Assembly: GCA_032128375.1 (NCBI GenBank)
Contig: JAQBGU010000191.1
Coordinates: 1-18,288, forward strand
Origin: Deltaproteobacteria bacterium
Lineage (GTDB): Bacteria; Myxococcota_A; UBA9160; SMWR01
Direction: 5' to 3'
DNA length: 18,288 bases
How positions within the stretch are numbered: the stretch's first letter is position 1; each line of letters opens with the position of its first letter. Positions 1-18,288 of the stretch are shown here, piece by piece. A program made the translations under genes and the position numbers. Below the pieces are notes generated by a model that saw only the letters and a list, made by a program, of their open reading frames with translations, was not told the DNA's origin and ran no database searches.

Positions 1-324
1 GGTCGCGTTGCTCGGTGTCTCCTGCGTCGTCTGGCGAATGATCTCGCTTTCGACTTGCTCTCGCGGCTGCCGCGGACGTCCTCCGCGCGGGAGGTCCTTC
101 TCAATGCCCGCGATGCCCTCTGCAAACCGGTTACGCCAACGCCCCACGGTGTGGACCTTCACGCCGAGTTGGGCGGCGATCTCCTGATTCGACTTCCCCT
201 CCGCAGCCCGCAGAATCATCTTGGCGCGTTGTGCCTGCCGCACGGCAACCTTGCGCCCTCTGGACCATTGCTGAAGGGTTGCCCGTTGACGCTTGGTGAG
301 GCGGATCTCGGCTGCAACGCGCAT
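1..324 (-). CDS. IS630-family transposase, N-terminal HTH part (runs off the window edge; absent from the ORF track)
   Basis: Manual translation from ATG at 324-322: MRVAAEIRLTKRQRATLQQWSRGRKVAVRQAQRAKMILRAAEGKSNQEIAAQLGVKVHTVGRWRNRFAEGIAGIEKDLPRGGRPRQ...ETPSNAT. The RAxxIL..A.G.SN.EIA..LG....TV.RWR.RF...G..G..D.PR.GRP pattern is typical of IS630 N-termini. A GGAGGGGG RBS lies upstream. Confidence 0.9.
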   Translation of the reverse strand, partial: MRVAAEIRLTKRQRATLQQWSRGRKVAVRQAQRAKMILRAAEGKSNQEIAAQLGVKVHTVGRWRNRFAEGIAGIEKDLPRGGRPRQPREQVESEIIRQTTQETPSNAT

Positions 325-402
325 GGTTCCCCCTCCGACCGTTGGCAGGGAGGATAACATGGCCGATCCTATAATGTCCTATAATTATGAATCATATCAC
401 TA
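1..402 (-). mobile_element. Left end of an IS630-family insertion sequence
   Basis: On the minus strand, TA (402-401) is followed by GTGATATGATTCATAATTA, an AT-rich terminus about 76 bp upstream of the transposase start. IS630 elements insert at TA. The partner end is outside the window, so the exact boundary is inferred. Confidence 0.7.
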
Positions 403-429
403 GATAGACCAGGCAGAAAAGCCAGGAGT

Positions 430-1083
430 TCACCCGGTCTGCGAAGCGGGCCGTCGCCACAAGCTCGCGAGCCAGGGTTGCTGGTCGCGCGGTCGGCCCG
501 GGGGGCGATAGTAGTGGCGGACCGGTTCGAAGCCGGCCCCCACCGCGAAATCGCGCCAGTGATCGAAATCGTGATAGGCGCCGTAGCGTCCGCGGTTCCA
601 ACCTTCGTCATTATCGCCGCGCGGGTTCGACGTGAACAGGATGCCACCGACTCGCAAACAATCATGCAACTCTTTCAGCACGCGAGGTAGCTCCTGAGCA
701 GGCACATGGAACAGCGACGCGTTGGCGAACACACCATCGAAGCGAGCGTCGGGCAGACCCAGCGCGAGGAAGTTCTGGTGCCAGACCTCTACGCCCGCGT
801 GTGCGCGCGCCATTTCTGCAAACGCTTCGCTGCCGTCGAGACCGACAGGAAGATGGCCGCGGTCGCGAAAGTCGCGCAGGTCGCGTCCCGGCCCGCAACC
901 AAAATCGAGAATCCGCTGAGGACCGTCACCGCCGATGGCGTCGAGCAACGCTTCGACGTTCTGCGACACGTCGTGGTCGCGCGTCCCTTCCCAGAATTCC
1001 TGCGCGTCGGCGCGATAGTGCTCGAGCGTGCGCTCCGTGATGTCGGCGAGTTCGGGTGTCTCGAGGCTTCGTGTGTGCGGCAT
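430..1083 (-). CDS. Class I SAM-dependent methyltransferase
   Basis: Motif I ILDFGCGPGRD, then GLDGS and FDGVFANASLFHVP. Start taken at ATG 1083 (MPHTRS); the track ORF extends to 1128. Confidence 0.9.
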   Translation of the reverse strand: MPHTRSLETPELADITERTLEHYRADAQEFWEGTRDHDVSQNVEALLDAIGGDGPQRILDFGCGPGRDLRDFRDRGHLPVGLDGSEAFAEMARAHAGVEVWHQNFLALGLPDARFDGVFANASLFHVPAQELPRVLKELHDCLRVGGILFTSNPRGDNDEGWNRGRYGAYHDFDHWRDFAVGAGFEPVRHYYRPPGRPRDQQPWLASLWRRPASQTG

Positions 1084-1256
1084 GAACTCTCTTTTTCGAC
1101 TGGCGGCCGAGTGGTGCGGTCGTTCCACGCGTAGCGGGATTCTACGCGACCCGCGCCGGCCCGCACGCGAATCGCGATGGTTCGATCCATCGAAGACGGG
1201 TTATCGTCAACCATCCAATGGGTCGGTCATTGCCCGGGGTGGTGGATCAGACAGCG

Positions 1257-1801
1257 ATGTCGGAAGAAGCGGTAGACGTTCTGATCGTCGGGGCCGGGGC
1301 CGCCGGCGCGGCCTTTGCATGGAGCCTCGCCGAGACACGCATGAATATCGTATGCCTCGAGCAAGGCGGCTGGATGAAACAGGAGGACTACCCGACGGCG
1401 GGGGTCGACTGGGAAATGCGGCGGCTCGGCGATTTCGGCATGAGCCCGAACTCCCGTCGTCGCAAGGAGGACTACCCGATCAACGACTCGGAGTCGCCGA
1501 TCGCGATTTCGAACTTCAACGCGGTCGGCGCCAGCACGATCCTGTACGCTGCGCATTTTCCGCGCTTCCACCCGGGCGATTTCAAGATCAATACACTCGA
1601 TGGCGTAGGTGACGATTGGCCGGTCGATCATGCACAACTGGCGCCCTACTACGATTTGAACGCGCGCATGATGGGCGTCGCTGGCCTCGCGGGCGACCCC
1701 GCCACCCCGCCGCACGACTTCCCGCTACCGCCCGTCCCATTGGGGAAAGTCGGCGAGACGCTCGCGAAGGGCGACTGATCGAGCGGAACCGGGAGAGGTG
1801 A
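1257..1801 (+). pseudogene. GMC-family flavoprotein oxidoreductase with a large internal deletion
   Basis: FAD-binding VDVLIVGAGAAG, CLEQG, NAVGASTILYAAHFPRFHPGDF and DDWPV..LAPYYD are present. The frame stops at 1776-1778 after about 173 aa, whereas the family is ~500+ aa. A shifted frame gives RLIERNRER* (ending 1801), which resembles a GMC C-terminus. Confidence 0.75.
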
Positions 1802-1847
1802 TTGCTGATGTTGCAGATTGAAATCGCGACGCGATGAGGGGCAGACC

Positions 1848-2184
1848 ATGAGTGAAGCCGTAAACCATTCTCAATTCAGCGATGACCAAAAGCGCGCGTT
1901 GAGTTGTGTATGGGCTCGCACAAGGCCGTAGTGGACCGGGCTTCGCAGCCCTGCCCGAGGCGCAGCGCTCGCAAGTGCTCGACGAACTCTCGACCACGCA
2001 CCCCGCGTTCCTTCCCAGTCTGATTTTCCACACCTACGTGGGCTACTACCAGGAACCGCGAATCGTGGCAGCGCTTGGAATGGAAACGCACCCCCCCTAC
2101 CCGAAGGGCTTTCCGATGGAACCGGGCGACCTCTCGCTCCTCGACGTGGTGAAGAAGCGTCCGAAGATGTTCCGCGCAGTGTAA
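1848..2184 (+). pseudogene. Gluconate-2-dehydrogenase subunit-3-like partner protein, frameshifted or internally deleted
   Basis: A GAGGGG RBS and ATG 1848 give MSEAVNHSQFSDDQKRALSCV..., stopping at 1929-1931. Another frame from ~1910 gives GFAALPEAQRSQVL...GYYQEPRIVAALG...PPYPKGF...DLSLLDVVKKR, typical of the small subunit encoded beside GMC genes. Confidence 0.6.
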
Positions 2185-2313
2185 CCGCGCGTATCGCACT
2201 CTCTACGACATGCTGATCGCCGACTCGGGTGCGCGGTGTCCCGTGCCTCGTGCTGCGGGCGTGCGGTCGGGCGACTACGTGCGCCGGATCGCGCGGTTTG
2301 CGATACCCCACCA

Positions 2314-3714
2314 ATGGAAAAGCCGCTCGGCCCGGAAATCGCATCCGAACTGTTGGATCTGCGCGACAAGCCGCCGGAACCGCTGGCAGCTTCGCCGCAG
2401 GCGCTCGGAGTCTGGGAACTCGCCTGGCCCACGATCATCAGCTTCGCGACCCAAACCGCAGTGCGCTGGGCCGACTTCGCAATGGTGGGCTCGCTCGGTA
2501 CCGACGCGCTCGCCGCGGTGGGTCTCGGTGGCCAGATCTACTGGCTGGTGCAGAGTGTCGGAGCGCTGGTGCCGACGGGACTGGTCGCGGTGTTGGCGCG
2601 CGCGATCGGCGCCGGGGATAGCGATCTCGCCGACGCAACGCTGCGCCAGGGTCTGATCCTGTCGACGGTCATCGGGCTCGTCACTACGTTCGCGCTGCTT
2701 CCCTTTTGCGATGTTGCAATCGAGATCTACGGCGTCGAACCCGCCGTCGTGGCGCACGGCTCCGAGTACGTGTTCTGGCTGCTTTGGGGAACCGTTCCGA
2801 TGGCTACCTCGATGGTCTTCGGCACGGCACTTCGGGCCGCGGGAGATGCGCGCTCGCCGCTGTACATCGGTGTGTTGGTGAATCTGATCAATGTGGGCCT
2901 CAACTGGCTGTTGATCTACGGAAACCTCGGGTTCCCGGCGCTGGGCGTCGCGGGCGCGGCGATGGCGTCGAGTCTCGCGATGTTCTTGCAGATAGTTTTG
3001 TTCTGGTGGCTCTGGCGTCGGGGGCGGTTCATTTTGCGCCGGGGCACAGCGAGTTCTCGACTGGACTTTGCTCTGATGCGTCGGATCTCGATTGTCGGTT
3101 ACCCAGCGGCATTCGAGGGTGTCGCGTTTCAGGTTGGCCTGCTCGCGTTTCAGCGGATCATGAGCGTCTACGGCACGGCTGCGATCGCGGCGTACAACGT
3201 CGGCGCGCAAATCCTGTCCTTGTCGTTCCTGCCCGGTATTGGTTTTGCGACAGCCGCCGGGACGTTGGTTGGGCAGTACCTGGGCAGCGGTTCACCCGCT
3301 GCAGCTGAACGCTCTGGTTGGCGCGCGACGGTTGGGGCGATTGTCAGCATGTCGGCGATGGGCGGCGTGGTGCTGCTGTTTCGCGAACCGCTCGCTCGCT
3401 CGTTTACTGACGACCCCGAGGTGATTCGGCTGACGATTGCATTCGTCTGGATCGTCACGCTGGTGCAGCCGATGATGGCGGTGGAGTTTGCGATCGGCGG
3501 TGCACTGCGCGGCGCCGGCGACACGTTGTTCCCGCTGGTCGTGATTTTCGTGGGTCTGTTCGTGTGTCGGCTGATGCCGGCGACGGCGATGGTGACGTGG
3601 TGGGATGTAACAGTCGAAATGGTCTGGTGTGCGCTGATCGCGGATTGGACCGTCAAGGCGGGGATGTTGGCGGTGAGATATCGGAAAGGGCGGTGGAAGG
3701 AAATGGAGGTCTAG
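2314..3714 (+). CDS. MATE-family efflux transporter
   Basis: Motifs LAWP, D..MVGSLG..ALAAVGLG, LRAAGDARSPL, NWLLIYGNLGFPALGVAGAA.A and LRGAGDT, with about 12 hydrophobic segments. Start taken at ATG 2314; the track ORF starts at 2236. Confidence 0.93.
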   Translation: MEKPLGPEIASELLDLRDKPPEPLAASPQALGVWELAWPTIISFATQTAVRWADFAMVGSLGTDALAAVGLGGQIYWLVQSVGALVPTGLVAVLARAIGAGDSDLADATLRQGLILSTVIGLVTTFALLPFCDVAIEIYGVEPAVVAHGSEYVFWLLWGTVPMATSMVFGTALRAAGDARSPLYIGVLVNLINVGLNWLLIYGNLGFPALGVAGAAMASSLAMFLQIVLFWWLWRRGRFILRRGTASSRLDFALMRRISIVGYPAAFEGVAFQVGLLAFQRIMSVYGTAAIAAYNVGAQILSLSFLPGIGFATAAGTLVGQYLGSGSPAAAERSGWRATVGAIVSMSAMGGVVLLFREPLARSFTDDPEVIRLTIAFVWIVTLVQPMMAVEFAIGGALRGAGDTLFPLVVIFVGLFVCRLMPATAMVTWWDVTVEMVWCALIADWTVKAGMLAVRYRKGRWKEMEV

Positions 3715-3813
3715 ACCCCGATTGGACGAGTTGGTTGACCGCTAGGACTTCTGGGCGGATCCGGGGTCTTGACCTGGGTGGAGCGTGGCGGGGCGAGGGC
3801 GTGGCCTACTCCG
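3706..3813. repeat. REP-like repeat, left part: inverted 17-mer (3706-3722) plus one ~70 bp unit (3744-3813)
   Basis: GAGGTCTAGACCCCGAT (3706-3722) is the reverse complement of ATCGGGGTCT(T/C)GACCTC at 8334-8350 and 8402-8418 (16/17 matches). The 3744-3813 unit AGGACTTCTGGGCGGATCCGGGGTCTTGACCTGGGTGGAGCGTGGCGGGGCG...TACTCCG matches the units at 8331-8430. Confidence 0.85.
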
Positions 3814-3902
3814 TTGGCCCAGTCTCGCCCTCGAAACCCGGCAGATGAGGTCCACTATGTCCCGGGTTTACGGGAGCATGTTGCCGGCGCGAGTCGAAAC
3901 GA

Positions 3903-3934
3903 ACCTTGAAGTCAGATTGAAGGTCAGGTAGAAG
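3903..3934 (+). promoter_or_regulatory. MerR-family operator overlapping the putative merR promoter (probably leaderless mRNA)
   Basis: Dyad ACCTTGAA-GTCAGA-TTGAAGGT at 3903-3924 (7/8 symmetric). TTGAAG (3906-3911), a 17 bp spacer and TAGAAG (3929-3934) end 7 nt before ATG 3942. No clear SD sequence. Confidence 0.6.
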
Positions 3935-3941
3935 GTCGCGT

Positions 3942-4349
3942 ATGGCAACGGAACTCACCATAGGCGAGCTCGCCAACGCGGCGGGCGTGCCCACCTCGAC
4001 TGTTCGCTACTACGAGCGGGCCGGAATTCTCGCGCCGAGCGGGCGGAGTGCGGGGAACTACCGCGTCTATTCCGAGGCCGAACTCGAACGACTGCGGTTC
4101 ATCCGCGCAGCACAGGCCACTGGTTTCACGCTGGACGACATCAAGGCGCTTCTTCGGCCTGCAGCCTGCGGCAAGGTGCAGGGTCTTATCGAGGAACGCC
4201 TCGGCCAGGTTGCCGAGCGGATGTCCGAGCTGAGGCGCGTGCAGCGTGTTCTAAAGGGCGCTCTCGCCGAATGCCTCGAACACGAGGAGAGCGGGCGCTG
4301 CCGGGTCATCGAGACTCTAAGTGCCGCGGCCGGCCGTCGAACCTCCTAG
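3942..4349 (+). CDS. merR: Hg(II)-responsive MerR-family transcriptional regulator
   Basis: MerR HTH LTIGELANAAGV..STVRYYER.G...NYRVY and GFTLDDIK.LL. Its only three Cys (C76, C111, C120) have the same 35/9 spacing as C82/C117/C126 of Tn21/Tn501 MerR. It lies directly upstream of mer genes. Confidence 0.88.
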   Translation: MATELTIGELANAAGVPTSTVRYYERAGILAPSGRSAGNYRVYSEAELERLRFIRAAQATGFTLDDIKALLRPAACGKVQGLIEERLGQVAERMSELRRVQRVLKGALAECLEHEESGRCRVIETLSAAAGRRTS

Positions 4350-4539
4350 ACCCTATGGAGTGACCGGCTCCATTCGCAAAACTCGTGATCAAGAAGAAAC
4401 GAGTACGGGCCCGTAGGGCCCTTTGATCGCGGGTTGCCGCCGAGGCGGTAGAGCCCTGTCCTCGAGGCCTCTCCAGCCCAGCGACTGAGCCCGTAACTGC
4501 CGGCAACCGCTCGGCTTTGCGGATTCTTCCAGAAAGCCC

Positions 4540-4571
4540 TTTACCTTGCACCCAGGTTCAAGCCGTAAAGT
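4540..4571 (+). promoter_or_regulatory. MerR-type long-spacer promoter/operator of the mer structural operon
   Basis: -35 TTTACC (4540-4545), 20 bp spacer, -10 TAAAGT (4566-4571). The dyad CTTGCACC-CA-GGTTCAAG (4545-4562) fills the spacer. 4543-4564 is 15/22 identical to the dyad at 3903-3924. Confidence 0.7.
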
Positions 4572-4611
4572 CTAGCAGTGGTGGGGATTCGCGCGCGCCA
4601 CGAAGAGAGGA

Positions 4612-5256
4612 ATGGAGTTGATGAACAACGAACCCGAACCGAGCGGGCGATGGGCGACAGGTGGGGCGATTGCAGCCGCCGTGGTCGCGTCATCGTGCTG
4701 CATGCTTCCCCTCGTTTTTGGCGCCGCCGGAATTTCAACCGTTGCGCTAGCCGGCGCGTTTGAGTCCGCACGGCCCTACATGCTCGGCGTCACCATTGTC
4801 CTTCTCGGTCTGGGCTTCTACTACAACTACTTTCGAAAGGCTGCGTGCGAGCCTGGCGACGCGTGTAAGACCCCGCGCCCGGGCCTTCGACGCATGAATC
4901 GGACGATGCTCTGGCTCGCCACGGTGGCGGTCGTCGCGCTCGCGTTCTTTCCCTCCTACGCGTTCGTGTTCGCGGGTAGTGAAACCCCGGCGGTTTCCGG
5001 CGTTGAATCCATCGACTCCAAGCAGGTGGTTCTCGAAGTCAGCGGTATGACGTGCGAAGCCTGCACGGTGAGCGTGCAAAACGAGCTCGCCGCAGTCCCT
5101 GGGGTTCTTCGCTCCGAAGTCGACTTTCGAGCCGGGAAGGCGGTCGTCTTGTTTCAAGCTGACTCGGCTCCGAGCGCGAGCGATTTGCTGTCTGCGGTCA
5201 GCCGCGCTGGATACTCGGCAGTTGTCGCCTCTTCCGCTCGGGGAGCTGAGGGATGA
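4612..5256 (+). CDS. merT: Mercuric transporter MerT fused to a C-terminal HMA (MerP-like) domain
   Basis: ASSCCMLPLV in TM1, RPY, a cytoplasmic CEPGDAC pair, a third TM, then an HMA domain VSGMTCEAC...VPGV...AGY. The stop overlaps the merA start (ATGA). RBS GAGAGGA; ATG 4621 is an alternative start. Confidence 0.9.
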   Translation: MELMNNEPEPSGRWATGGAIAAAVVASSCCMLPLVFGAAGISTVALAGAFESARPYMLGVTIVLLGLGFYYNYFRKAACEPGDACKTPRPGLRRMNRTMLWLATVAVVALAFFPSYAFVFAGSETPAVSGVESIDSKQVVLEVSGMTCEACTVSVQNELAAVPGVLRSEVDFRAGKAVVLFQADSAPSASDLLSAVSRAGYSAVVASSARGAEG

Positions 5257-6686
5257 GCGATTGCTGTGCGAACGACCTGACGGACGAGCGGTCATTTGAC
5301 CTGGCCGTCATCGGTGGCGGCTCGGCAGCGTTCGCCGCGACGCTCCGCGCGACTGAACTCGGAGCCACCGTGCTTCTCGTAAACGAGGGCACGATTGGTG
5401 GCACCTGCGTGAACATCGGCTGTGTTCCCTCGAAGACGCTCATCCGAGCTGCCGAGAACTTCCACTGGAATCAGCTTTCTCGGTTTCGTGGGGTCAAACC
5501 GAGTCCTGGAAGCATCGACTTTCGGTTGCTGATGGAGGAGAAGAACGCACTCGTTGAGAGCCTTCGGACAGCCAAGTATGCAGACGTTCTCTCACGCCTC
5601 TCTGGTGTTCGCTTTCTAGAGGGCAAGGCGAAGCTCACCGGACGGAACGAATTGGAGGTGTCGGGGGAGCGCTTCGAGGCCGGGAAGATGGTCATTGCCA
5701 CCGGCACGCGACCCGTTTTTCCGGCCATCCCTGGACTCGCCGAGGCGGCTGTCTGGGACAGCACGCAGGCGCTCGATGCGCCGTTTCTTCCGGAGCGACT
5801 CATCGTGCTCGGGGGGAGTTATATCGCGCTCGAGCTCGGTCAGATGTTTTCTCGCCTGGGAAGCGAGGTCACGATTCTGCAGCGCAGTGCACATGTGCTC
5901 TCAGGAGAAGACCGCGACGTCGCAGAGGGTGTGACGCGGTTTCTCCGCGAAGAGGGAATCGAGATTCTTACCGGACAGAAGCTGCAGTCGGTCGAACGGC
6001 TGGGCGACGGTTTCGTAGTGGATGCAGCGGGAAACGCCGAGGTTGTCGCCCACAGCGCTGATGCCGTGGTATCAGCTCTTGGACGTCGTGCGAACACCGA
6101 AGCGCTCGAACTCGATGCCGGTGGCGTAGAACTCGACGCTCGCGGCTTCGTTCGCGTAGGCGACGACCTCGAGACGACTCAGGCGGGTATCTACGCCGCG
6201 GGCGACGTCCTGGGTGAGCCTGCCTTCGTCTACGCCGCAGCCTATGAGGGCTCACTTGCCGCCGAGAACGCACTCTTGGGAGAGGCTAAGAGGCGCGACT
6301 ACACAGCGATTCCGTGGGTGGTGTTCACGGACCCGCAGGTGTCCGGAGTGGGCCTCAGCGAGCGCCAGGCCGCCGAGTCCGGAATCGAGGTGGACGTCTC
6401 GGTGCTCCCCCTTGAACACGTTCCGCGGGCCGTCGCGGCGCGTGACACGCGAGGATTCGTAAAGCTGCTCCGTAAGAGCGGAACGGACCATCTGGTTGGT
6501 GCTCGGATTGTGGCTCCGGAAGGCTCAGAGCAGATAATGGAAGCGAGCTTGATGATTCGGTTCGGACTTCCTGTTTCCGAAGTCGCCAAGCACTTCCACC
6601 CCTATCTAACGCAAGGCGAAGCAATGAAGCTCGCCATGCTCTCCTTTGACACGGACGTGGAGTCTCTCTCGTGTTGCGCCGGCTAA
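5253..6686 (+). CDS. merA: Mercuric reductase without an N-terminal NmerA domain
   Basis: FDLAVIGGGSAAFAA, redox centre GGTCVNIGCVPSK, FVYAAA, VVFTDPQV, FHPYLT and the MerA-diagnostic C-terminal LSCCAG. Confidence 0.97.
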   Translation: MSDCCANDLTDERSFDLAVIGGGSAAFAATLRATELGATVLLVNEGTIGGTCVNIGCVPSKTLIRAAENFHWNQLSRFRGVKPSPGSIDFRLLMEEKNALVESLRTAKYADVLSRLSGVRFLEGKAKLTGRNELEVSGERFEAGKMVIATGTRPVFPAIPGLAEAAVWDSTQALDAPFLPERLIVLGGSYIALELGQMFSRLGSEVTILQRSAHVLSGEDRDVAEGVTRFLREEGIEILTGQKLQSVERLGDGFVVDAAGNAEVVAHSADAVVSALGRRANTEALELDAGGVELDARGFVRVGDDLETTQAGIYAAGDVLGEPAFVYAAAYEGSLAAENALLGEAKRRDYTAIPWVVFTDPQVSGVGLSERQAAESGIEVDVSVLPLEHVPRAVAARDTRGFVKLLRKSGTDHLVGARIVAPEGSEQIMEASLMIRFGLPVSEVAKHFHPYLTQGEAMKLAMLSFDTDVESLSCCAG

Positions 6687-6973
6687 TCCGCTCCGTCGCC
6701 GTCGTGCTGGTGCTGTCGCTCGGCGCGAACTCACACTCTGCGGATGCGTCCGATGCCCTTCAGACCTGGGTCTTTAGCGTCGAAGGCATGACGTGAGGCG
6801 GATGCGTCAAGTCGGTCCGTGAGGCCGCTCTGAGTGTTGAGGGCGTCACAGAAGCAGATGTGAGCTTGCGCGAGAAGACGGCGAGGGTCACGGCGCGAGA
6901 GGGAACGACGTGGGATGCGGTCAAGAGAGCTATCGAGTCGGCCGGATACCGCGCGGAGCTAGCGGATGAATGA
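6671..6973 (+). CDS. Exported MerP-like HMA-domain protein with in-frame TGA (predicted selenocysteine U42, UxxC motif); absent from the ORF track
   Basis: GGAG (6659-6662) precedes GTG 6671. Translation: MLRRLIRSVAVVLVLSLGANSHSADASDALQTWVFSVEGMT*GGCVKSVREAALSVEGVTEADVSLREKTARVTAREGTTWDAVKRAIESAGYRAELADE. TGA 6794-6796 occupies the first Cys of GMTCxxC. The N-terminus looks like a signal peptide. The start overlaps merA and the final stop overlaps merF. Confidence 0.88.
6801..6838 (+). promoter_or_regulatory. Candidate bacterial SECIS element for the MerP-like UGA
   Basis: Hand-folded. Upper stem CGGUC (6813-6817)/GGCCG (6823-6827), loop CGUGA (6818-6822), bulged U6812, AG/CU pairs, lower stem GAUGCGUCA (6801-6809)/UGAGUGUU (6831-6838). 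The loop begins 21 nt after the UGA. Confidence 0.7.
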
Positions 6974-7205
6974 ACGAAACCTGCTTGGAATCGGAATTAC
7001 TGGAACGATCGTTGCCGCGCTTTGCTGCTTCACGCCAGTTCTCGTGGTCTTGCTTGGCGCGGTCGGCCTGTCAGCGATTGTTGGGTGGCTCGACTACGTG
7101 CTGCTGCCTGCACTCGCGGCCTTCGTTGCACTGACGGTCCACGCCGTTACGCGGCGCCGGCGAGCGCTGGCGGCTTCTTCGTCAGCTGAGGTCGGGAGCG
7201 AATGA
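6966..7205 (+). CDS. merF: Mercury transport protein MerF
   Basis: GTIVAALCCFTPVLVVLLGAVGLSAIVGWLDYVLLPAL is a near-consensus MerF sequence. The stop overlaps the merB start (ATGA). Confidence 0.93.
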   Translation: MNERNLLGIGITGTIVAALCCFTPVLVVLLGAVGLSAIVGWLDYVLLPALAAFVALTVHAVTRRRRALAASSSAEVGSE

Positions 7206-7864
7206 CGCGGCTGCTAGACGCCGCGAAGAAGGCCTGGGCGAGCGAATACGCCGGGCTTTCGGAAGCGGAGATAGAGCAGCGCGTTCGAGGATTTGGCGCG
7301 ATGGTGATAGGCATTGCCGAAGACGGCGTGCTTTGTGTCGAGCGTTTCGCCGAACTCATGGGGCTCGAGACTGCGGTGGCAAGCAAGGTCTTTGCCGGGC
7401 TCTTCGCAGCTGGAATGCAGAAAGACGAGGCCGGAAACATTGTCGGCGCAGCCCTGACTGCGCGCGAAACGCCGCACAAGATTCGCGTGGCCGGTAAAGA
7501 ACTCTACGCCTGGTGCTCACTCGACGCGCTGTTCATCCCCGGGCTTCTCGGCGAAACGGCTGACATCGAATCGACGTGCCCGAGTAGCGGCGATGCGATT
7601 CGGCTAACCGTCTCGCCTGAGGCCGTGGGAAGAGCCGAGCCGTCCTCGACCTGGCTCTCTGTGTTTCTCCCGGGCGGCTCTTCGAGACAGCTAGGACCGG
7701 CGAGCCCGACGTGAAGCCAGATGCACTTTTTCCGCGCCCGGGAGGCGGCGGAGGAGTGGGTGGTGGGGCGAGCGGCAGTCGTAGCACTCAGCCTCGATGA
7801 GGCCTTCGAACTCGCCCAGGTGCATTGGGTGAATCGCGCCAAGCGGCTGCCTACACCACGATAG
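7202..7864 (+). CDS. merB: Organomercurial lyase MerB with in-frame TGA (predicted selenocysteine U171 at the catalytic Cys159-equivalent), 220 aa
   Basis: LYAWCSLDALFIP (C105/D108 = C96/D99 of R831 MerB) and ESTCPSSG (C117-equivalent). After TGA 7712-7714 the frame continues SQMHFFRAREAAEEWVVGRAAVVALSLDEAFELAQVHWVNRAKRLPTPR to TAG 7862-7864, matching the MerB C-terminus FC159CHVHFFAS...AEDW...VSVHEAFGLG. Confidence 0.92.
7724..7758 (+). promoter_or_regulatory. Candidate bacterial SECIS element for the merB UGA
   Basis: Hand-folded. CACUUUUUCCGCGCC (7724-7738) pairs with GGCGGCGGAGGAGUG (7744-7758) with one bulged U and one bulged G. Loop CGGGA (7739-7743) begins 24 nt after the UGA. Confidence 0.72.
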
Positions 7865-8010
7865 GTACTCCGCGCCGTTCCCGGAGCGGAGCCGGTCCGT
7901 TCCGGGCGCCTGAAGCCCTGAGGTCCACGGTGATCACACAAATGATCACCTGAAAACCGGCCATTGGGGCAGAAGTCGTCCGGGACATGGCGTGCAGTCG
8001 ATGCGGTTGG

Positions 8011-8330
8011 CCCAACTTCCGCAGTTGAGAGTTCGTTTTCCTGCTTTTCCAGTCACTTAGCTGGAAAAGTTGGCACTACATTATTTTGTCCAGATGTGTG
8101 GGGACTCGAAGGCGCTCGGGCAGTCGCAAACCCAGTCGATCGAGCAGCATTGCCTGAGCCTCATCGGGACGGACGACGCAGCGGATGCGAAGCGCGCGAT
8201 GCGGCTCACCGGCCAACGGGAGCACGACGTCGGTGCTCTGGATGCGGCCGATCTCCTTCAGGATCGTGCGTGGACTGTTGCCCGACCCCGCCCGCCGCTG
8301 CCATTGCTCGAGCGTCTTCCACAGCACGTA
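8011..8330 (-). mobile_element. IS1634-family remnant (3' end of transposase plus right terminus)
   Basis: Minus-strand 8330-8076 translates [38 protein letters not shown]...[28 protein letters not shown], recognised as an IS1634-type transposase C-terminus. It is followed by a terminus-like AACTGCGGAAGTTGGG ending at 8011. The coding remnant stops abruptly at the repeat at 8331. Confidence 0.8.
8044..8069. terminator. Perfect 9-bp hairpin just downstream of the remnant transposase stop; possible terminator
   Basis: CTTTTCCAG-TCACTTAG-CTGGAAAAG. There is no clear U-tract, so function is uncertain. Confidence 0.35.
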
Positions 8331-8430
8331 CGGATCGGGGTCTCGACCTCGGTGGAGCGTGGCGGGGCGTGGCGGGGCGTACTCCGAGGACTTCTGGCCG
8401 GATCGGGGTCTTGACCTCGGTGGAGCGTGG
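8331..8430. repeat. REP-like tandem repeat, right part: two partial ~68 bp units (8331-8386, 8387-8430)
   Basis: CGGATCGGGGTCT(C/T)GACCTCGGTGGAGCGTGG occurs at 8331 and 8399, 68 bp apart. Same unit as 3744-3813. Confidence 0.88.
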
Positions 8431-8455
8431 TGGATCGGGGCGGATCGCGCACGAT

Positions 8456-9334
8456 TCAGTATGGGACGTCTCCCTTGATCGTGATTCGGTTCATTTCGCG
8501 ACGGTGGCCCTGGTAGTCATTGAGCGCGTAGTGCTGGACGCAGCGGTTGTCCCAGATGGCTAGTGAACCGGCTCGCCAACGGAAGCGCGTCGTGAATTGC
8601 GGAGAAGTTGCGTGCGCTGATATGAAGTCCATCAGCGGTTGGCTTTCTTGGATTCGCATGTTCTCGAAGCGCTCGACGTGGGGGACATCCATGTAGAGCG
8701 CACGCCGACCCGTTTCGGGGTGGGTGCGAACGACGGGATGAATGAAGCGGGCCTGCTCCTTGGCTTCGTCCTGTTTCTTGCCCATCGGGTGGTCGACCTT
8801 TGCGTAGAGGCCATCAGAACTGTGTACCTTGGCGGCCGTGAACACCGCGTTCAGGTTTCCGAGCATCGCTTGCATTCCGGTCGATAGTGCGTCGTACGCG
8901 GCCGTCATGCTGGCAAACAGAGTATCTCCACCCGCCGTCGGAACCTCCAGCGCGTACAGAATCGTCGCCATCGAAGGCTTCTCCTGGTAGGACATGTCGG
9001 AATGCCAGCCGCCGCCGAAGTTGATCTTGGTATCCGGTTCTTTGATGATCGGAATCACGTAGGGGTGATCGGGTAGTGAGGGGATGAACGGATAGGTGTC
9101 GAGTTCACCGAAGTGTTCGGCGAATGCGGCCTGTTCGCTCGGGGTGATCTGTTGATCGCGAAAGAACAGGACCTGGTGTTCGAGCCAAGCGTGGTGGATT
9201 TCTTCGAATACCTTGTCATCGACATTCGAGAGGTCGACACCGCTGACCTCGGCGCCGATACAACCACTGGTTGGCTCGACCTGGATTCTCGCGTACTGAA
9301 ATGAGTCTTTGGCTGAGGAGTCAGATGCGTTCAT
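8456..9334 (-). CDS. TauD/TfdA-family Fe(II)/2-oxoglutarate dioxygenase
   Basis: [21 protein letters not shown] (HxD), [32 protein letters not shown] and [10 protein letters not shown]...R. Confidence 0.95.
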
Positions 9335-9384
9335 GTCGGCTCCGTTTATTCGGCCGATCGGGGGCGATGGCCGACGACGAGATT

Positions 9385-12300
9385 CTACAGGACCTGGGAC
9401 CGCTGCTCAGCAGCGCGTCCGGCCAGATTTCCATATCGGTGGTAGTTGACGCACAGGCTCTGCTCACGCAGATAGTGGAGCAATTCGATCCTTCCGTCAG
9501 CCAGAACAGGCTCGGTGGCCAGATACAGCCCTGTTGCCGCCGCAGAGCGTCTCACCAACTCCGGAACCCGCTGCGCGCTAGCGAACCGGAGCCGATCGGT
9601 CTGCCCGGCCTCGATGGCCTCGGCCACCTCGGCGTCGGTCTCCTCGACGAACTCCACGGCCACCTCCGCTCGGCGGGACCACTCCCGTAGCAACGCGACG
9701 CGTCCGTCCCAGCCCGAGCGCGATGAGACTGTTGGCGGGCACTGCGCGGTGTGGGCGGCTATCACCATCGCGAAGACCTCGAAGTCGGAATCGGCCCGGT
9801 CGATCCGAACTCGCAGCGCAGCGAGCGGTAGATAGCGCCTCAGGTTGTCTTGACCGACCAAACGGAACGAGTCGTGATCGCTTCCGAATTCTTCGGTCAT
9901 CGCGAGCTGGTAGCTTCCGGCCGCCGCGAGCAGTCGCTCGAACTCAGTAGAATCGAGCTCAGGCCGATCAGCGAGCGCGGCAAACAGCGGGCCCAGCTTC
10001 GCATCCTCCGCCGCGTCGACAGCCGGTGGCGCACTGCGATCGGACACACGCATCAACGGAACCACATAGTTCGGTCCGCCGGCCTTCAGGCCCGGCCCGA
10101 TCGCGCTGCGCGCCACCCCTCCGAAGGGCTGCCGGCCGACGATCGCTCCGGTGGTTCCCCGGTTGATATAGAGATTGCCCGCTCGAATCTTGTGAGACCA
10201 GGTCTGCCATTCGCGATCGTCGAGGCTATGCAAACCAGCCGTCAGTCCGTAACCGGTCGCGTTCGCCAACGCGATGGCCTCGTCGAGGTCGGCCGCCGCC
10301 ATCACGCTGAGGACTGGCCCGAAGAACTCCGTCGTATGGCCGGGGCTGTTTGGCGCGACTCCCCATTTCACACCAGGCGACCAAAGGTTCGGGTTTTGTG
10401 CATCGGGCCTCGGCGTGACCGCCCAAGATTCGCCCTCATCGAGCCGGCGTAGTGCCGTCGCAAGTGCTCCAGAAGGGGGCCGAATCAGTGGACCGACCCG
10501 CGTCGTCGGGTCCCACGCAGAGCCGACGGGCAGGCTCTCGACCGCATCACACAGCGAACGGCGGAAACCCGCATCGTCGAAAACTTCGCGCTCCAAAATC
10601 AATAACGACGTCGCAGAACACTTCTGTCCCGAGTGACCGAACGCGGATTGGACGCAGTCGCTGATCGCCAGGTCGCGGTCGGACATGGCGGTGACGATCA
10701 TTGCGTTCTTGCCTCCGGTCTCCGCGAGTAGCCGCATCGCGGGTCGCTGGCTCAGCATTGCGAAGGCCGTCTTGGTTCCCCCGGTGAAGACCACCGTGTC
10801 GACATCGCCGTGGGCGACGAGGTGGGCTGCCACGTCATCGTTGTCACCGGACACGAATTGAAGCGCGCTGCGGCCGATGCCGGACGACCAGAAGCACTCG
10901 CACAAGATGTACGCAGTCTGCACCGATTCTGGCGCCGGCTTCAGGATCACTGTGTTGCCGGCTGCAAGCGCTGCGGCCACGCCACCGCACGGAATTGCGA
11001 TCGGGAAATTCCACGGCGGCACGACCGCAACGACGCCCCGGCCCGACACATCGAGGTTCGCGCGATTCGCAAGAAATTCGGCCGCCCGCGCGTAGTATTC
11101 GCAGAAGTCGACCGCCTCCGAGACCTCCGGATCGGATTCGGCCAAGATCTTACCGGCCTCGGCCAAGGCGATGCCCAGCAGGTCCGCGCGCCGCTCTCGA
11201 ATCGCTTGAGCGGCGGCGCGAAGCCTCTCCCCGCGCTCTGCCGCAGACTTCTCGCGCCAGCGGTCCGGATCCTCGATCGCGCATGCGACTGCGGCATCGA
11301 CATCCGCCACGCTGGCAACCCGGTACCGGCCCACGACAACGCCTGGCCGCGATGGATCCGTCGATTCGCGGATTGCGTGTCCGTCCATGATCTCGCGGCC
11401 CCCGATTACCAGGGATGCCTCGACGGCCGCGTCGGTGTGCCGACCCATCCAACGTTGATAGATGGACTCCACCCAGCTTTCATGGTGGTACAACGCGAAA
11501 TCGGTATCGGGCTCATTGACGAACTGGTCGAGCGGCGCCTGCGCGGCGAGAGCGGGCTGCGGGGCTCGGCGACGGTCCTGGCGGCGGCGCGGCGTGTCGG
11601 GCAGATCGGCGATCCGATCGAAAGCTTCGACGAAGTCGCGTTCGAGTGCCCTCCAGGCTTCGGAATCGACCGTGACGCGGAATGCGTGACGCAGAAAGTT
11701 GCTCGGGCCCGAATTCTCGTCGAGCCGCCGAATCAGGTAACCGATGGCGTAAACGAAATCCTCCCGGCGGCATGCGGGCGCGTACAAGAGCAGCTCGGAG
11801 GTCTGTTCGAACAAAGCCCGCCGCTGGTGGTTCGCCATGCCTTCGAGCATTTCGAACTGGACGCAGTCCTCGATGCCGCGCTCGCGCGCCAATACCAATC
11901 CATACGCGAGTTCGAACAGGTTGTGTGAGGCAACGCCGATTCTGACAGCCCGTGCGTGGTCTGGCTCGAGCCCGTAGTGGAGCATCCGCTTGAAATTCGC
12001 GTCGGTGTCACGCTTGTGCTGGAAGGTCGCGCACTCCCATCCGCTGAGAGATGCCACGACTCGCTCCATTTCCATGTTTGCACCCTTGACGATTCGCAGT
12101 GTGACTGGGGCACCACCGCGTTGTCGGCGTCGCAACGCCCACTCAGTGAGCGTCCTCTGGGTGCGAAACGAGTCCGGTACATATGCCTGCAACACGAGGC
12201 CGGCTGGAATATTGGATAGGTCGGGCCGGTCGAGCGTTCGCATGAAGACCTCAGCCGTAATCGACATGTCCCTGTACTCTTCCATGTCCATGTAGACGAA

Positions 12301-12945
12301 CTTCGGTGCTTCCCGGCCGGCAGCAGCCTCGCGGTAGAGCGATTCCATCCGGTCGCACAGCGTCTCGATTGTTTGCTGGCGCGCGACGACCGAAATTTGC
12401 GAGAAGAGTGTCGAGATCTTGACCGACACCACCTCGATGTCGGGGTTGCGTAGCGCCTGTCGGTAATGTTCCAATCGGCGTGCGGCTTCCGCTTCTCCGA
12501 GCAACGCTTCGCCGAGAAAATTGACGTTCATGCGCACGCCCTCGGCGCGCCGCGCTTGCAGGTGAGGCCCCAATAATTCTGGCTCCGCGGGCAGTATCAC
12601 GTTGGCTGTTTCGTGCTGCATCTTTTCCTTGACGAGCGGAACCGCGACGCCGGGCAAGTAGCCTCCGAACGATTGAAAGCCGCGCAGCAGTGTGCGGTCG
12701 AGCGGCGAGAAGAAGCGGGGTACACCCTGCACGTCGAGTATATGAGTCAACTGATCGGCGGAACGCCAGGCTGTGTTGGACCGGAATGCCTGATCGGTCA
12801 ATTCCACGAGCGTGGCCCTGTCGGAGGGGTGTTGGATCATCCGATCGAGTTCGGCCTGTTGGCTCAGCTCTTGCGGAGTTTGCAGTGCTGCGGAGCGCTG
12901 TTGGAGCTGGTGCGCCAGTTCCACCGCGCGCTGAACGTCGTTCAT
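9385..12945 (-). CDS. putA: Bifunctional proline dehydrogenase / L-glutamate-gamma-semialdehyde (P5C) dehydrogenase
   Basis: PRODH motifs NFLGE, DMEE, LQAY, RIVKGA, ASHN, FEMLEGM, YLIRRLDEN. ALDH motifs PWNFP, FTGG, AETGGKN, GQKCSATS, EFFGPV, YGLTAG, QPFGG. Confidence 0.95.
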   Translation of the reverse strand: MNDVQRAVELAHQLQQRSAALQTPQELSQQAELDRMIQHPSDRATLVELTDQAFRSNTAWRSADQLTHILDVQGVPRFFSPLDRTLLRGFQSFGGYLPGVAVPLVKEKMQHETANVILPAEPELLGPHLQARRAEGVRMNVNFLGEALLGEAEAARRLEHYRQALRNPDIEVVSVKISTLFSQISVVARQQTIETLCDRMESLYREAAAGREAPKFVYMDMEEYRDMSITAEVFMRTLDRPDLSNIPAGLVLQAYVPDSFRTQRTLTEWALRRRQRGGAPVTLRIVKGANMEMERVVASLSGWECATFQHKRDTDANFKRMLHYGLEPDHARAVRIGVASHNLFELAYGLVLARERGIEDCVQFEMLEGMANHQRRALFEQTSELLLYAPACRREDFVYAIGYLIRRLDENSGPSNFLRHAFRVTVDSEAWRALERDFVEAFDRIADLPDTPRRRQDRRRAPQPALAAQAPLDQFVNEPDTDFALYHHESWVESIYQRWMGRHTDAAVEASLVIGGREIMDGHAIRESTDPSRPGVVVGRYRVASVADVDAAVACAIEDPDRWREKSAAERGERLRAAAQAIRERRADLLGIALAEAGKILAESDPEVSEAVDFCEYYARAAEFLANRANLDVSGRGVVAVVPPWNFPIAIPCGGVAAALAAGNTVILKPAPESVQTAYILCECFWSSGIGRSALQFVSGDNDDVAAHLVAHGDVDTVVFTGGTKTAFAMLSQRPAMRLLAETGGKNAMIVTAMSDRDLAISDCVQSAFGHSGQKCSATSLLILEREVFDDAGFRRSLCDAVESLPVGSAWDPTTRVGPLIRPPSGALATALRRLDEGESWAVTPRPDAQNPNLWSPGVKWGVAPNSPGHTTEFFGPVLSVMAAADLDEAIALANATGYGLTAGLHSLDDREWQTWSHKIRAGNLYINRGTTGAIVGRQPFGGVARSAIGPGLKAGGPNYVVPLMRVSDRSAPPAVDAAEDAKLGPLFAALADRPELDSTEFERLLAAAGSYQLAMTEEFGSDHDSFRLVGQDNLRRYLPLAALRVRIDRADSDFEVFAMVIAAHTAQCPPTVSSRSGWDGRVALLREWSRRAEVAVEFVEETDAEVAEAIEAGQTDRLRFASAQRVPELVRRSAAATGLYLATEPVLADGRIELLHYLREQSLCVNYHRYGNLAGRAAEQRSQVL

Positions 12946-12955
12946 TGCCGAGCGG

Positions 12956-13339
12956 TCAACCGATTCGAGACGGTCGCACGATTAAGACCGTTGCGATCAT
13001 CAACGCGGCTACCCAGACCAGGCCGCCGCGCGATGGCGCCGGAATGGGTGAGAGCAGCGGAGGCAACTTCAAGCAGAGGTCGAGTGCAATCTCGACGTCG
13101 CTTGGTCTGACCGCCACATCGCTCTGCCAGGGAGACAGACCGGCGATGGCAGTGCGTGAAACCAACGCGATCAGCACTGTTGCCAACCGTGTCGGGACGG
13201 CACCTGATTCAACCGACTTGAAACTGCAGCAGCCGATCGGCATTCTCTGACTCTCCACCGCCATTGTCAGCGCGCGGGCTGGCAAGAGCAAGCATGAACC
13301 AGAGATCTGTCCTGCGGGCCCGCTCGATCTCGGGTCCAT
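12956..13339 (-). CDS. Hypothetical or degraded ORF ending in a hydrophobic C-terminal tail
   Basis: Fills the putA-desulfhydrase gap and ends 10 bp before the putA start. C-terminus IPAPSRGGLVWVAALMIATVLIVRPSRIG. Start and coding status are uncertain. Confidence 0.25.
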   Translation of the reverse strand: MDPRSSGPAGQISGSCLLLPARALTMAVESQRMPIGCCSFKSVESGAVPTRLATVLIALVSRTAIAGLSPWQSDVAVRPSDVEIALDLCLKLPPLLSPIPAPSRGGLVWVAALMIATVLIVRPSRIG

Positions 13340-13497
13340 GGCCCATCAAGGAGTCGTTTCGAGTCGGTCGTGACGCGATCGCTCCCAAGACCCACGGCCC
13401 CAGCAACATTCCGCTTTGCGATTCCGTATCGCGAAGCCCTGACCAAGGGTAGGTTTCGGCACTGATTCCCGACCGGGAACGCATGAGGTGGTCAATC

Positions 13498-14499
13498 GTG
13501 AAGCCAATCAGCGAATTCCCGCGCGTGTCACTGGGTCACCTGCCCACGCCGCTCGAGCCACTCCCGCGACTTTCTGCCGAACTGGGTGGACCCGAAATCT
13601 GGATCAAGCGAGATGATTGCACCGGATTGGCGACGGGCGGCAACAAGACGCGCAAGCTCGAATTCCTGATGGGCCAGGCTGGCGCGGATGGGGCCGACAC
13701 CGTCGTCACGTTCGGTGCGTTGCAATCCAATCACGCGCGTCAAACCGCGGCCGCGGCGGCTCGGCTCGGTCTTCACTGTGTCGTGTTCCTGGTTCGAAAG
13801 GTGACGTACACGGAACCGGCGTACCAGACGTCGGGCAATCTGCTGTTGGATGATCTTCTCGGTGCACGCGTCGAAATCGCAGACGATGAGGTGGCGCTCG
13901 GCGAACGCCTCGAAAGCGTCAGGGACGAATTGCGAACGGAGGGCCGAACCGTATACGTGATCCCGCCGGGTGGCTCCAATACGGTCGGTGCGCTCGGATA
14001 TGTGAATTGCGCGTTGGAGATCGACACGCAGTGCCGCGAACTCGGAATCGAACCAAGCGCGGTCGTGCATGCGTCGTCCAGTGGTGGCACGCAGGCCGGG
14101 CTGGTTGCAGGCTTCGCAGGGCTGCAGAGCGCGTTGTCAGTGCAGGGGATCAACGTCACTGACAAGGATGCAACCCGAATCGTCGCGCTGGTTCACGGTC
14201 TGTGCCGCGAGACCTGCCAGACGATCGAGATCGGCGCTGTGGACGAGAAGCAGATCCGGATCGATCACGACTACCTTGGCCCAGCCTACGGAATCCCCAC
14301 CGATGCGATGCGAGAAGCGGTGAAACTGGCTGCTACTCGCGAGGGAATCCTTCTCGACCCGGTCTACACCGGCAAGGCGATGGCCGGATTGATCGGCCGG
14401 ATCCGGGCGGGTGTGTACCGACGAGGAGAAACGGTCGTGTTTCTGCACACCGGTGGGAGCGCCGGTCTGTTCGCGTACCGCGATGCGTTGACGGGTTGA
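13498..14499 (+). CDS. dcyD: D-cysteine desulfhydrase family PLP enzyme
   Basis: PTPLEPLPRLS, IWIKRDD, GGNKTRKLEFL, QSNHARQTAAAA and SSGGTQAG. It has DPVYTGKA and HTGG, not the DPVYEGKS/HLGG of true ACC deaminases. GAGGTGG RBS precedes GTG 13498; the track ORF starts at 13483. Confidence 0.88.
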   Translation: MKPISEFPRVSLGHLPTPLEPLPRLSAELGGPEIWIKRDDCTGLATGGNKTRKLEFLMGQAGADGADTVVTFGALQSNHARQTAAAAARLGLHCVVFLVRKVTYTEPAYQTSGNLLLDDLLGARVEIADDEVALGERLESVRDELRTEGRTVYVIPPGGSNTVGALGYVNCALEIDTQCRELGIEPSAVVHASSSGGTQAGLVAGFAGLQSALSVQGINVTDKDATRIVALVHGLCRETCQTIEIGAVDEKQIRIDHDYLGPAYGIPTDAMREAVKLAATREGILLDPVYTGKAMAGLIGRIRAGVYRRGETVVFLHTGGSAGLFAYRDALTG

Positions 14500-14648
14500 C
14501 GGGCTCCGGCAGGAGGTTGGAAAACCCTTTTCGTCGCCCGGCCCGGCGCAGACGGCGCCGAGCGTCCGATCGAAGGGGCTGCGAGTCTGCGCTGTGGAGT
14601 GCCAGCTCCAGCGTGCAGGCGACGACGGAAAAATTCGAAGAACGCGCC

Positions 14649-16337: not shown

Positions 16338-16351
16338 GAGTGACCTCCCAC

Positions 16352-16484
16352 CGGTTGATGACTCTTTGCACGATCGGTTGATGACTCTCTACCTCAACCG
16401 GTTGATGACTCTCTACCTCGATCGGTTGATGACTCTCTACCTCAATCGGTTGATGACTCTCTACGTCAATCGGTTGATGACTCT
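16352..16484. repeat. 24-bp tandem repeat (VNTR), six core copies
   Basis: CGGTTGATGACTCT occurs at 16352, 16375, 16399, 16423, 16447 and 16471. Linkers are TTGCACGAT, CTACCTCAAC, CTACCTCGAT, CTACCTCAAT and CTACGTCAAT. Confidence 0.97.
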
Positions 16485-16485
16485 A

Positions 16486-17211
16486 CTACCAGGTTTCCGC
16501 GAAAGGGCGGATTTCGGTTTCGAACGTCCAGGTGCTCCTGGGCTGATGGGCCAGGTGCCAAACAGACTCCGCGATATCTGCTGGTTTCGCGAAGAAATCG
16601 TCCGGGGCTTCGGGCATGCTCTTTCGCGTCCACTCCAGATCGATCACCGCATCGATTACCAGATAGCTGACATGGATTCCCCTGGGACCGAGTGAACGCG
16701 CCATGCTCTCGCCCAGGATACGCTGCGCGGCTTTGGTCGGTGCGAAGCCCGCGAACCGCGCTTTGCCACGCCGGGCGCTCGTATTGCCGGTAATGACGAT
16801 CGACCCGGCTCCGCTGGCCAACATGTCAGCAGCAGCGAGTTGGCCACAGTGGAACAGCCCCATCGTATTGATCTGGAAGTTGCTTTCCAGAACCTCGGGC
16901 GCGAGATCCATGAATTCCGAAAAACTTCCCATCGCTGCGTTGTATACCAGTACGTCGACAGGCCCCAGTTCGTTTCGAATCGCGTCGAATGTCGCGTCGA
17001 GCGCCGCGCGGTCGGTTACGTCAGACGCGAACGCGTGTGTGTTGGGAATGGCCGCGGCCCACTCCTTCAGCCGATCTTCGCGTCGTGCCAGCATCGCGAC
17101 CTGGTAGCCGCCCTTAGCAAAGCGCTCCACGCTGGCGAGACCCGTGCCCGGGCCGACTCCCGCAACTACGCAGACACCGCCGCCCATGACATCGCTCACG
17201 TCACCGCTCAT
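16486..17211 (-). CDS. Short-chain dehydrogenase/reductase
   Basis: VVAGVGPGTG (GxGxxxG), LVYNA, TGNTSA, FAPTK.AQR (FxxxK variant), GIHVSYLVIDAVID and WTFETEIRPFAETW. The start overlaps the upstream gene's stop. Confidence 0.93.
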   Translation of the reverse strand: MSGDVSDVMGGGVCVVAGVGPGTGLASVERFAKGGYQVAMLARREDRLKEWAAAIPNTHAFASDVTDRAALDATFDAIRNELGPVDVLVYNAAMGSFSEFMDLAPEVLESNFQINTMGLFHCGQLAAADMLASGAGSIVITGNTSARRGKARFAGFAPTKAAQRILGESMARSLGPRGIHVSYLVIDAVIDLEWTRKSMPEAPDDFFAKPADIAESVWHLAHQPRSTWTFETEIRPFAETW

Positions 17212-18257: not shown

Positions 18258-18288
18258 GATTTCGTGGCCTCCAGGGTGCGAACCAGGT

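Follow-up and report, generated by a model that had tools for sequence, protein, structure and literature searches.

The chemistries of mercury and selenium are closely connected, but classical mercury-resistance (mer) systems are described as thiol-based. Selenoproteins with related functions have been reported. Two reviews (PMC9312934, 2022; PMC13188914, 2026) tabulate a selenoprotein of the MerT type, a cation ATPase with a UxxC motif and a UxxU metal-binding protein (U denoting selenocysteine)—the last of these, the 'metal-binding (seleno)protein' of family NF041115, being listed there as a 'putative mercuric reductase'—and the word MerP is absent from both. MerT-family and MerB-like (SaoL) selenoproteins are described in the Haft 2022 preprint, and the Global Ocean Sampling (GOS) selenoproteome (PMC2398784) includes 'Mercuric transport protein MerP' among previously described selenoprotein families. 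Here, we analyzed a window of 18,288 nucleotides from a Deltaproteobacteria bacterium (contig JAQBGU010000191.1 of assembly GCA_032128375.1, positions 1 to 18,288; Myxococcota_A in the GTDB lineage) that holds a complete mer operon in which selenocysteine (Sec) is predicted in both the capture protein and the lyase. The gene at the center of this study, located at positions 6671–6973 of the forward strand, very probably encodes an exported, MerP-like selenoprotein with a heavy-metal-associated (HMA) domain, in which an in-frame UGA would be decoded as Sec and contribute to the binding of Hg.

The gene consists of 100 codons plus a stop, with the predicted Sec at codon 42. It starts with a GTG at 6671, in a 16-nucleotide overlap with the end of merA (5253–6686), and a Shine-Dalgarno-like GGAG (6659–6662, forward strand) lies 8 nucleotides before this start codon, within the 3' end of merA. 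The same GGAG-N8-start layout is repeated in G176, G178 and G153, where it also encodes the conserved MerA C-terminus. At the other end, the terminal TGA (6971–6973, forward strand) overlaps the merF ATG at 6966 as ATGAATGA, and the gene is translationally coupled on both sides within a merR-merT(HMA)-merA-X-merF-merB operon. An earlier note on this DNA had proposed that the apparent gap between merA and merF is a single 100-codon frame with a Shine-Dalgarno sequence and a stop overlapping the merF start; each of these elements was found at the positions given above, with the internal TGA at 6794–6796. The same note had called the gene unannotated, a statement that could be checked indirectly: in a collection of 5.8 billion proteins, the relatives found at E≤1e-6 were three post-TGA fragments of 56–57 residues and nothing else, and neither a full-length nor a Cys-form ortholog was recovered within the sensitivity of that search. 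Judged from its sequence, the segment 6671–6973 is a real, previously unannotated selenoprotein gene.

The nature of the product is indicated by its HMA domain (positions 6770–6949, forward strand), which had been predicted to be complete across the TGA. The Pfam HMA profile (PF00403) matched residues 34–93 over profile positions 1–61 of 62 (E=1.1e-14; 54.9 bits, cut-off 24.8), and the domain therefore spans the internal TGA. A BLASTP alignment with the HMA domain of the MerT-HMA fusion encoded in the same operon (34% identity over 68 residues, E=6e-07) aligned the TGA with the Cys that opens the metal site of GMTCxxC—in agreement with the assignment of this codon to the first metal-binding Cys by comparison with the Cys paralog. 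The predicted Sec (U42; positions 6794–6796, forward strand) hence occupies the first Cys position of the GMT-C-xx-C loop, and the two metal ligands are the TGA-encoded U42 and Cys45, in the motif U-G-G-C. Structure prediction with AlphaFold2, using an alignment of 27 sequences as the input, gave predicted local distance difference test values of 94–98 over residues 31–100 and low values at residues 1–29. The model displays the beta-alpha-beta-beta-alpha-beta arrangement of the HMA fold, with strands at residues 30–38, 59–65, 70–76 and 94–97, helices at residues 43–54 and 81–90, and U42 in the beta1-alpha1 loop. The best match of the model in the Protein Data Bank (PDB), as identified with Foldseek, was MerP of Ralstonia metallidurans (1osd_A), with a TM score of 0.93, a root-mean-square deviation of 1.0 and 36% identity. 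In total, 81 PDB structures matched at E≤0.001, and every match listed either is an HMA-type metal-binding domain or contains one. A sequence search of the PDB agreed with the structural search, and NmerA (2kt2), the N-terminal domain of mercuric reductase, was among both the sequence and the fold matches.

If the TGA at 6794–6796 were a genuine stop, the locus would be either a decayed merP pseudogene or two short ORFs, one for a 41-residue peptide and the other for a fragment of ~56 residues with a start of its own. Conventional calling of open reading frames (ORFs) does end the frame at 6796, and gene callers yield only the 56–57-residue post-TGA products for the relatives. The codon itself is not an assembly error, because contigs from four public runs (X1, X2, X3 and X5), belonging to two studies, show the same TGA and no other letter at 6794–6796; three of these runs come from one study (one of them possibly the source of the assembly) and the fourth from the second study. 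Independent runs thus contain TGA rather than TGC or TGT, and homologs share it, both as the earlier note's reading implied: the same alignment column is TGA in G176, G178, G153, G173, G031, L093 and L106. Relatives were collected through a six-frame search over 225 genomes from the same class, including that of the window, in which the four best non-self matches (77, 62, 57 and 42% identity) and a fifth relative (38% identity) each carried one TGA, while the TGA-less matches, among the matches listed, all had ≤47% identity. The motif at the TGA column in the five relatives reads E-G-M-T-U-G-G-C in three, E-G-M-T-U-G-S-C in one and G-V-T-U-G-G-S in one. The TGA is carried by every near relative of the gene: five further merA-linked members, two more distant sequences (G173 and G031), 26 lipoprotein loci of the Acidobacteria type and 78 of the 80 metagenome loci that were fetched. 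A scan of genome contigs with the single protein as the query confirmed no relative.

The sequence that follows the TGA behaves as coding DNA. Nei-Gojobori dN/dS values after the TGA ranged from 0.15 to 0.40 in all six pairs of four subfamily members (49 ungapped codons), with dS values of 0.6–2.8 in the same pairs. As read from these substitution patterns, the frame downstream of the TGA is under purifying selection and translation goes on past this codon. Such a pattern speaks against a genuine stop, as does the retention of TGA in the same column in at least eight sequences (38–77% identity) and in ~100 further loci. Moreover, strand 1, which the HMA fold needs, is encoded before the TGA; neither half could therefore fold on its own, and the metal-binding loop would itself be halved. 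Set against the ORF-calling results, these findings leave a pseudogene or a split pair of peptides as an extremely improbable account of the locus.

The genome, which is 91% complete, encodes the components needed for Sec insertion: SelA (E=2.2e-133), SelB (recognized via its wing domain, E=5.2e-14, in a 690-residue frame), one tRNA-Sec with the anticodon TCA, and a SelD (L003, G000:C140) that itself contains an in-frame TGA, placing U in a G-G-U-A-R-K motif. In selD, we also observed a GC-rich hairpin with the loop GGUUC ~23 nucleotides after its UGA. SelA was likewise present in 5/5 other genomes with the TGA form of the HMA gene. Downstream of the UGA in the window's gene, a hairpin resembling a selenocysteine insertion sequence (SECIS) was identified at 6813–6827 (forward strand), with the stem CGGUC/GGCCG (6813–6817 with 6823–6827) and the loop CGUGA (6818–6822), i.e., 20–34 nucleotides from the U of the UGA. 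In a set of eight sequences—six subfamily members and two distant ones—92.5% of the cells in this hairpin were paired, compared with 27.5–55% when the pairing partner was slid. Additionally, among codons for conserved residues with at least four-fold degeneracy, the third base was invariant in 2/3 hairpin codons and in 0/17 elsewhere, and this constraint at synonymous sites lends modest support to the hairpin.

A sister subfamily of the Acidobacteria type carries an equivalent hairpin, with the loop CGUGC, placed 4 nucleotides closer to the UGA and in another codon register. This structure was 100% paired in 24 distinct sequences and contained two compensatory pairs (8 cells), and 0/500 shuffles matched either the observed pairing or the covariation score. 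Other subfamilies possess their own G-rich-loop hairpin, each in the same place after the TGA. A SECIS hairpin is thus likely in the window's subfamily as well.

Export of the product is suggested by the N-terminus (positions 6671–6748, forward strand; approximately codons 1–23 to 1–26), which by inspection and hydrophobicity is signal-peptide-like. It contains three Arg, an 11-residue hydrophobic stretch (VAVVLVLSLGA, mean Kyte-Doolittle value of 2.78) and small-residue candidate cleavage sites at -3/-1, a layout that matches the signal-peptide-like N-terminus put forward in the earlier note. Four merA-linked members were compared with G173 and G031, and 6/6 of these proteins show the same organization, with a positive stretch, an 11-residue hydrophobic core (mean Kyte-Doolittle values of 2.7–3.6) and small-residue -3/-1 motifs. 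Twin-arginine translocation was considered and rejected: neither G176 nor G178 conserves the RR that the window's protein carries, and export through the general secretory pathway is therefore favored, as far as these N-termini allow a prediction, with the periplasm as the destination. The N-terminus could instead be an uncleaved anchor that holds the domain on the cytoplasmic side, where it would replace a missing NmerA domain and deliver Hg(II) to MerA. Consistent with such a role, the MerA of this operon has no N-terminal HMA domain, the gene is coupled to merA in 6/6 subfamily members and NmerA appears among the matches cited above. However, the three Arg precede the hydrophobic stretch, an orientation for which the positive-inside rule predicts a domain on the outer side; the stretch has a core of just ~11–12 residues and is followed by small-residue cleavage motifs; and the members of the sister subfamily carry L-x-G/A-C lipoprotein boxes. 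We consider a cytoplasmic, anchored domain very unlikely, and proceed with a predicted periplasmic protein.

The genomic context links the gene to mercury detoxification. The operon, all on the forward strand, runs in the order merR, merT-HMA, merA, the selenoprotein gene, merF and merB. The regulator gene merR (3942–4349) was recognized by the Pfam models MerR_1, MerR and MerR-DNA-bind. Next comes merT (4612–5256; Pfam MerT and HMA), whose MerTP-like product ends in a fused HMA domain of the Cys type and scored 114 bits with the MerTP model NF033556, below its cut-off of 180. The merA gene (5253–6686) encodes a mercuric reductase that matched TIGR02053 with 519 bits (cut-off 454) and does not have the NmerA domain, TIGR02053 being aligned over 1–465 of 465 and PRK13748 only from position 93. 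The small membrane Hg transporter gene merF (6966–7205) was identified with PF11431 (E=4.8e-24) and NF033565 (101.5 bits, cut-off 50). Across the subfamily, merA lies directly upstream in 6/6 members, with the start of the HMA gene within its last codons; merT-HMA precedes merA in all four members where the DNA extends that far; and merB is found downstream, directly or after merF, in 4/6. In one relative (G178, L057:3200-3530), we observed a second exported HMA-like protein, of the Cys type with a G-L-S-C-P-F-C motif, in the place of merF. The flanks of the window hold ordinary metabolic genes, and no transposase was seen in them. Neither Pfam nor NCBIfam gave a match for an ORF of 199 residues just after merB (7964–8563, forward strand), which runs into the end of a TauD gene on the opposite strand (8456–9334) and may not be a gene.

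Moreover, merB itself appears to encode a second selenoprotein. Read through a TGA at 7712–7714 (codon 171), the gene extends from 7202 to 7861 on the forward strand and specifies an organomercurial lyase of 220 residues, 49 codons of which are added beyond the TGA. The predicted Sec aligns with the position in solved MerB (chain 3f2g_A) that we take to be the catalytic Cys159. The Sec motif of merB was also found in G176 and G001, and 13/13 near-full-length MerB matches in the 225 genomes, the window's own included, carried one TGA. The numbering of Cys159 follows the Haft 2022 preprint. With model-based searches, the product scored 140 bits with the MerB model (cut-off 193) and 27 bits with the SaoL model (cut-off 140); an assignment as SaoL was rejected on these values, the protein being nearer to MerB.

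Several observations weigh against the reading of the locus as an exported, Sec-containing and Hg-binding protein, and they bear on its decoding, its metal and its location. With respect to decoding, SelA was present not only in the genomes with the TGA form, but also in 5/5 genomes with Cys forms only, which makes it necessary but not discriminating. In the window's own subfamily, no compensatory changes were found in the hairpin among the eight sequences, and shuffles do not separate; an earlier count with six sequences gave the same picture of a hairpin conserved without covariation. Furthermore, no SECIS family of Rfam matched over 6500–7200 at E≤10, the only hit being a chance match to a long non-coding RNA. 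The missing covariation and the missing Rfam match would fit a read-through by a route other than Sec insertion, such as near-cognate Trp or Cys suppression, that leaves the protein without selenium. Set against this explanation are the complete Sec machinery of the genome, the position of the TGA exactly on a metal-ligand Cys—a classic site of Sec/Cys exchange—and the hairpin that each subfamily has at the same distance from its TGA. A reassigned genetic code was rejected because the gene itself, merT-HMA and merF all end in TGA. We attach hardly any probability to read-through without Sec, and regard Sec insertion as the far better account of the codon.

With respect to the metal, the protein scored 46.7 bits with the MerP model, under the equivalog cut-off of 92.55, and the best curated model was CopZ with 57.5 bits, which is below its own cut-off too; the metal specificity consequently rests on the operon context. 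A real selenoprotein that serves as a periplasmic chaperone for copper or another soft metal, and merely travels with the operon, would accommodate the higher CopZ score, as well as the position of the sister subfamily mostly outside mer operons and that of the G173 and G031 members away from merA. Such a chaperone is nevertheless unlikely, given the overlap with an upstream merA in every member of the window's own subfamily, the presence of merB or merF downstream in 4/6 of them and MerP as the best structural match. The operon context also qualifies the suggestion of the earlier note that the protein may feed MerF. That the gene belongs with the mer core stands, since merA precedes it in 6/6 subfamily members, but merF comes next in only 2/6 (G000 and G176), and a hand-off to MerF is not general; the constant partner of the subfamily is the mer core and not merF. 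With respect to location, export was judged by eye and with a crude hydrophobicity script. Weighed together with these points, a Hg-binding, exported selenoprotein is the reading we retain.

On this basis, the following mechanism can be proposed. The UGA at 6794–6796 would be decoded as Sec by SelB and tRNA-Sec, guided by the hairpin just downstream, and the 100-residue precursor would be exported through the general secretory pathway to give a mature periplasmic protein of ~75 residues. There, Hg(II), and possibly organomercurials, may be held between the U42 selenolate and the C45 thiolate. The importers, namely MerT-HMA and, where present, MerF, could then take over the metal through ligand exchange with their cysteine pairs; from the topology of MerT, we infer that the HMA domain fused to it would be periplasmic as well. 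Detoxification would be completed in the cytoplasm by the Sec-containing MerB and by MerA. Compared with a thiol, a selenol has a lower pKa, a higher affinity for Hg and faster exchange—properties that would favor mercury capture in sulfide- and thiol-rich marine sediment.

A broader idea, which we put forward tentatively as the less probable side of the matter, is that this lineage runs a selenium-dependent Hg and organomercury pathway, in which the MerP-like capture protein and MerB have both been switched to Sec as a coordinated adaptation. If this is true, Hg and methylmercury at the trace levels of marine sediment would be bound by selenolates in preference to sulfide and thiol ligands, and mercury resistance and demethylation in this environment would depend on the supply of selenium. 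Gene callers stop at TGA, which suggests that, for these lineages, surveys of mer genes may record too few merP genes and shortened versions of merB. The operon also offers a natural Sec/Cys pair for studying the effect of a selenolate on Hg(II) affinity and hand-off kinetics.

The change from Cys to Sec is not confined to the window's subfamily, but recurs in ~100 HMA genes that lack annotation, in bacteria from sediments and the ocean. We scanned one genome per prokaryotic species, as well as metagenomes, with a degenerate DNA motif for E-G-M-T-TGA-G-G-C that runs across the TGA. The species-representative genomes gave 31 loci, against ~4 expected by chance (our own arithmetic, for random sequence of equal size with a uniform base composition). 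When inspected, each of the 31 read as an HMA-like frame after a hydrophobic signal or a lipoprotein box, and the five that were run against profiles all matched HMA-family models. By their titles, 26 of the 31 loci belong to Acidobacteria/Vicinamibacterales, 3 are duplicates of the window's subfamily and 2 come from Planctomycetota and Phycisphaerae. In metagenomes, the scan gave 91 stretches; of the 80 that were fetched, 78 contain HMA-like frames that give 64 different downstream translations, and L075 and L081 were set aside as chance matches to the motif that are not HMA-like. Two new members of the window's subfamily, L093 and L106, emerged from the metagenome scan.

The loci of Acidobacteria/Vicinamibacterales form a large, unannotated subfamily of the lipoprotein type, with the motif V-E-G-M-T-U-G-G-C-x-L-A-V-R-Q-A-L (L040-L070 and L071-L150; e.g., L049:2818-3174:- and L046:2866-3207:+). 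Members of this sister subfamily scored 79–90 bits with NF041115, just below the cut-off of 95. MerR-like regulators were found near the gene in 10 loci, and the subfamily lies mostly outside mer operons; a neighborhood scan of 10 sister or distant loci, based on ORFs and Pfam, was mostly uninformative, long ORFs in GC-rich DNA often being spurious. Further Sec-HMA subfamilies with their own hairpins were observed in metagenomes (L077, L137, L138 and L149; L085, L100, L123, L130 and L142; L133; L146), one of which is exported and has A-I/L-T-V-Q-G-A-L after the motif, another has no evident signal peptide and another is a tandem HMA. Finally, the closest relatives of the window's gene (L047, L057 and L065) come from entries titled Spirochaetaceae and Deltaproteobacteria, yet their genomes are placed in one genus of the window's order; the taxonomy in the titles of these metagenome-assembled genomes looks unreliable.

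How, then, does this protein relate to the systems already described? It shares with MerP (TIGR02052; PDB 1osd and 1afi), which binds Hg(II) in the periplasm, a single HMA domain whose beta1-alpha1 loop forms the metal site and a place in a mer operon, and its signal-peptide-like N-terminus would be a further common trait. Unlike MerP, it carries Sec in place of the first Cys, and so departs from the two-Cys ligand pair of GMTCxxC; moreover, its gene overlaps and follows merA rather than merT, in an operon where MerT already carries a fused HMA domain. With the UxxU_metal_bind family NF041115, the protein shares a small HMA-type architecture and Sec at the first metal-ligand position, but it is UxxC and not UxxU, and scored 48.7 bits with that model (cut-off 95). 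The UxxC cation ATPase has the same UxxC motif in a protein of heavy-metal transport, whereas the ATPase is a large membrane pump and the window's protein is a free-standing domain that is predicted to be exported. In the ATPase, the motif presumably sits in the N-terminal HMA domain. The MerT/CopZ fusion NF045683 and the MerT-family selenoproteins, as presented in the Haft 2022 preprint, are similarly Sec-containing components of mercury-type transport; the window's protein differs from the fusion, scoring 33.3 bits with NF045683 (cut-off 375), and the window's own MerT-HMA scored 96 bits and has no TGA. With the 'MerP' entry of the GOS selenoproteome (PMC2398784), the likeness is in name: that entry consists of two identical 33-residue read fragments, has zero Cys homologs counted and does not contain G-M-T-U-x-x-C. 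Within the papers covered by our full-text literature search, no MerP containing Sec was found to be described from a mer operon. HMA selenoproteins as such have already been predicted in the literature, and what is new here is the exported, merA-coupled, UxxC form.

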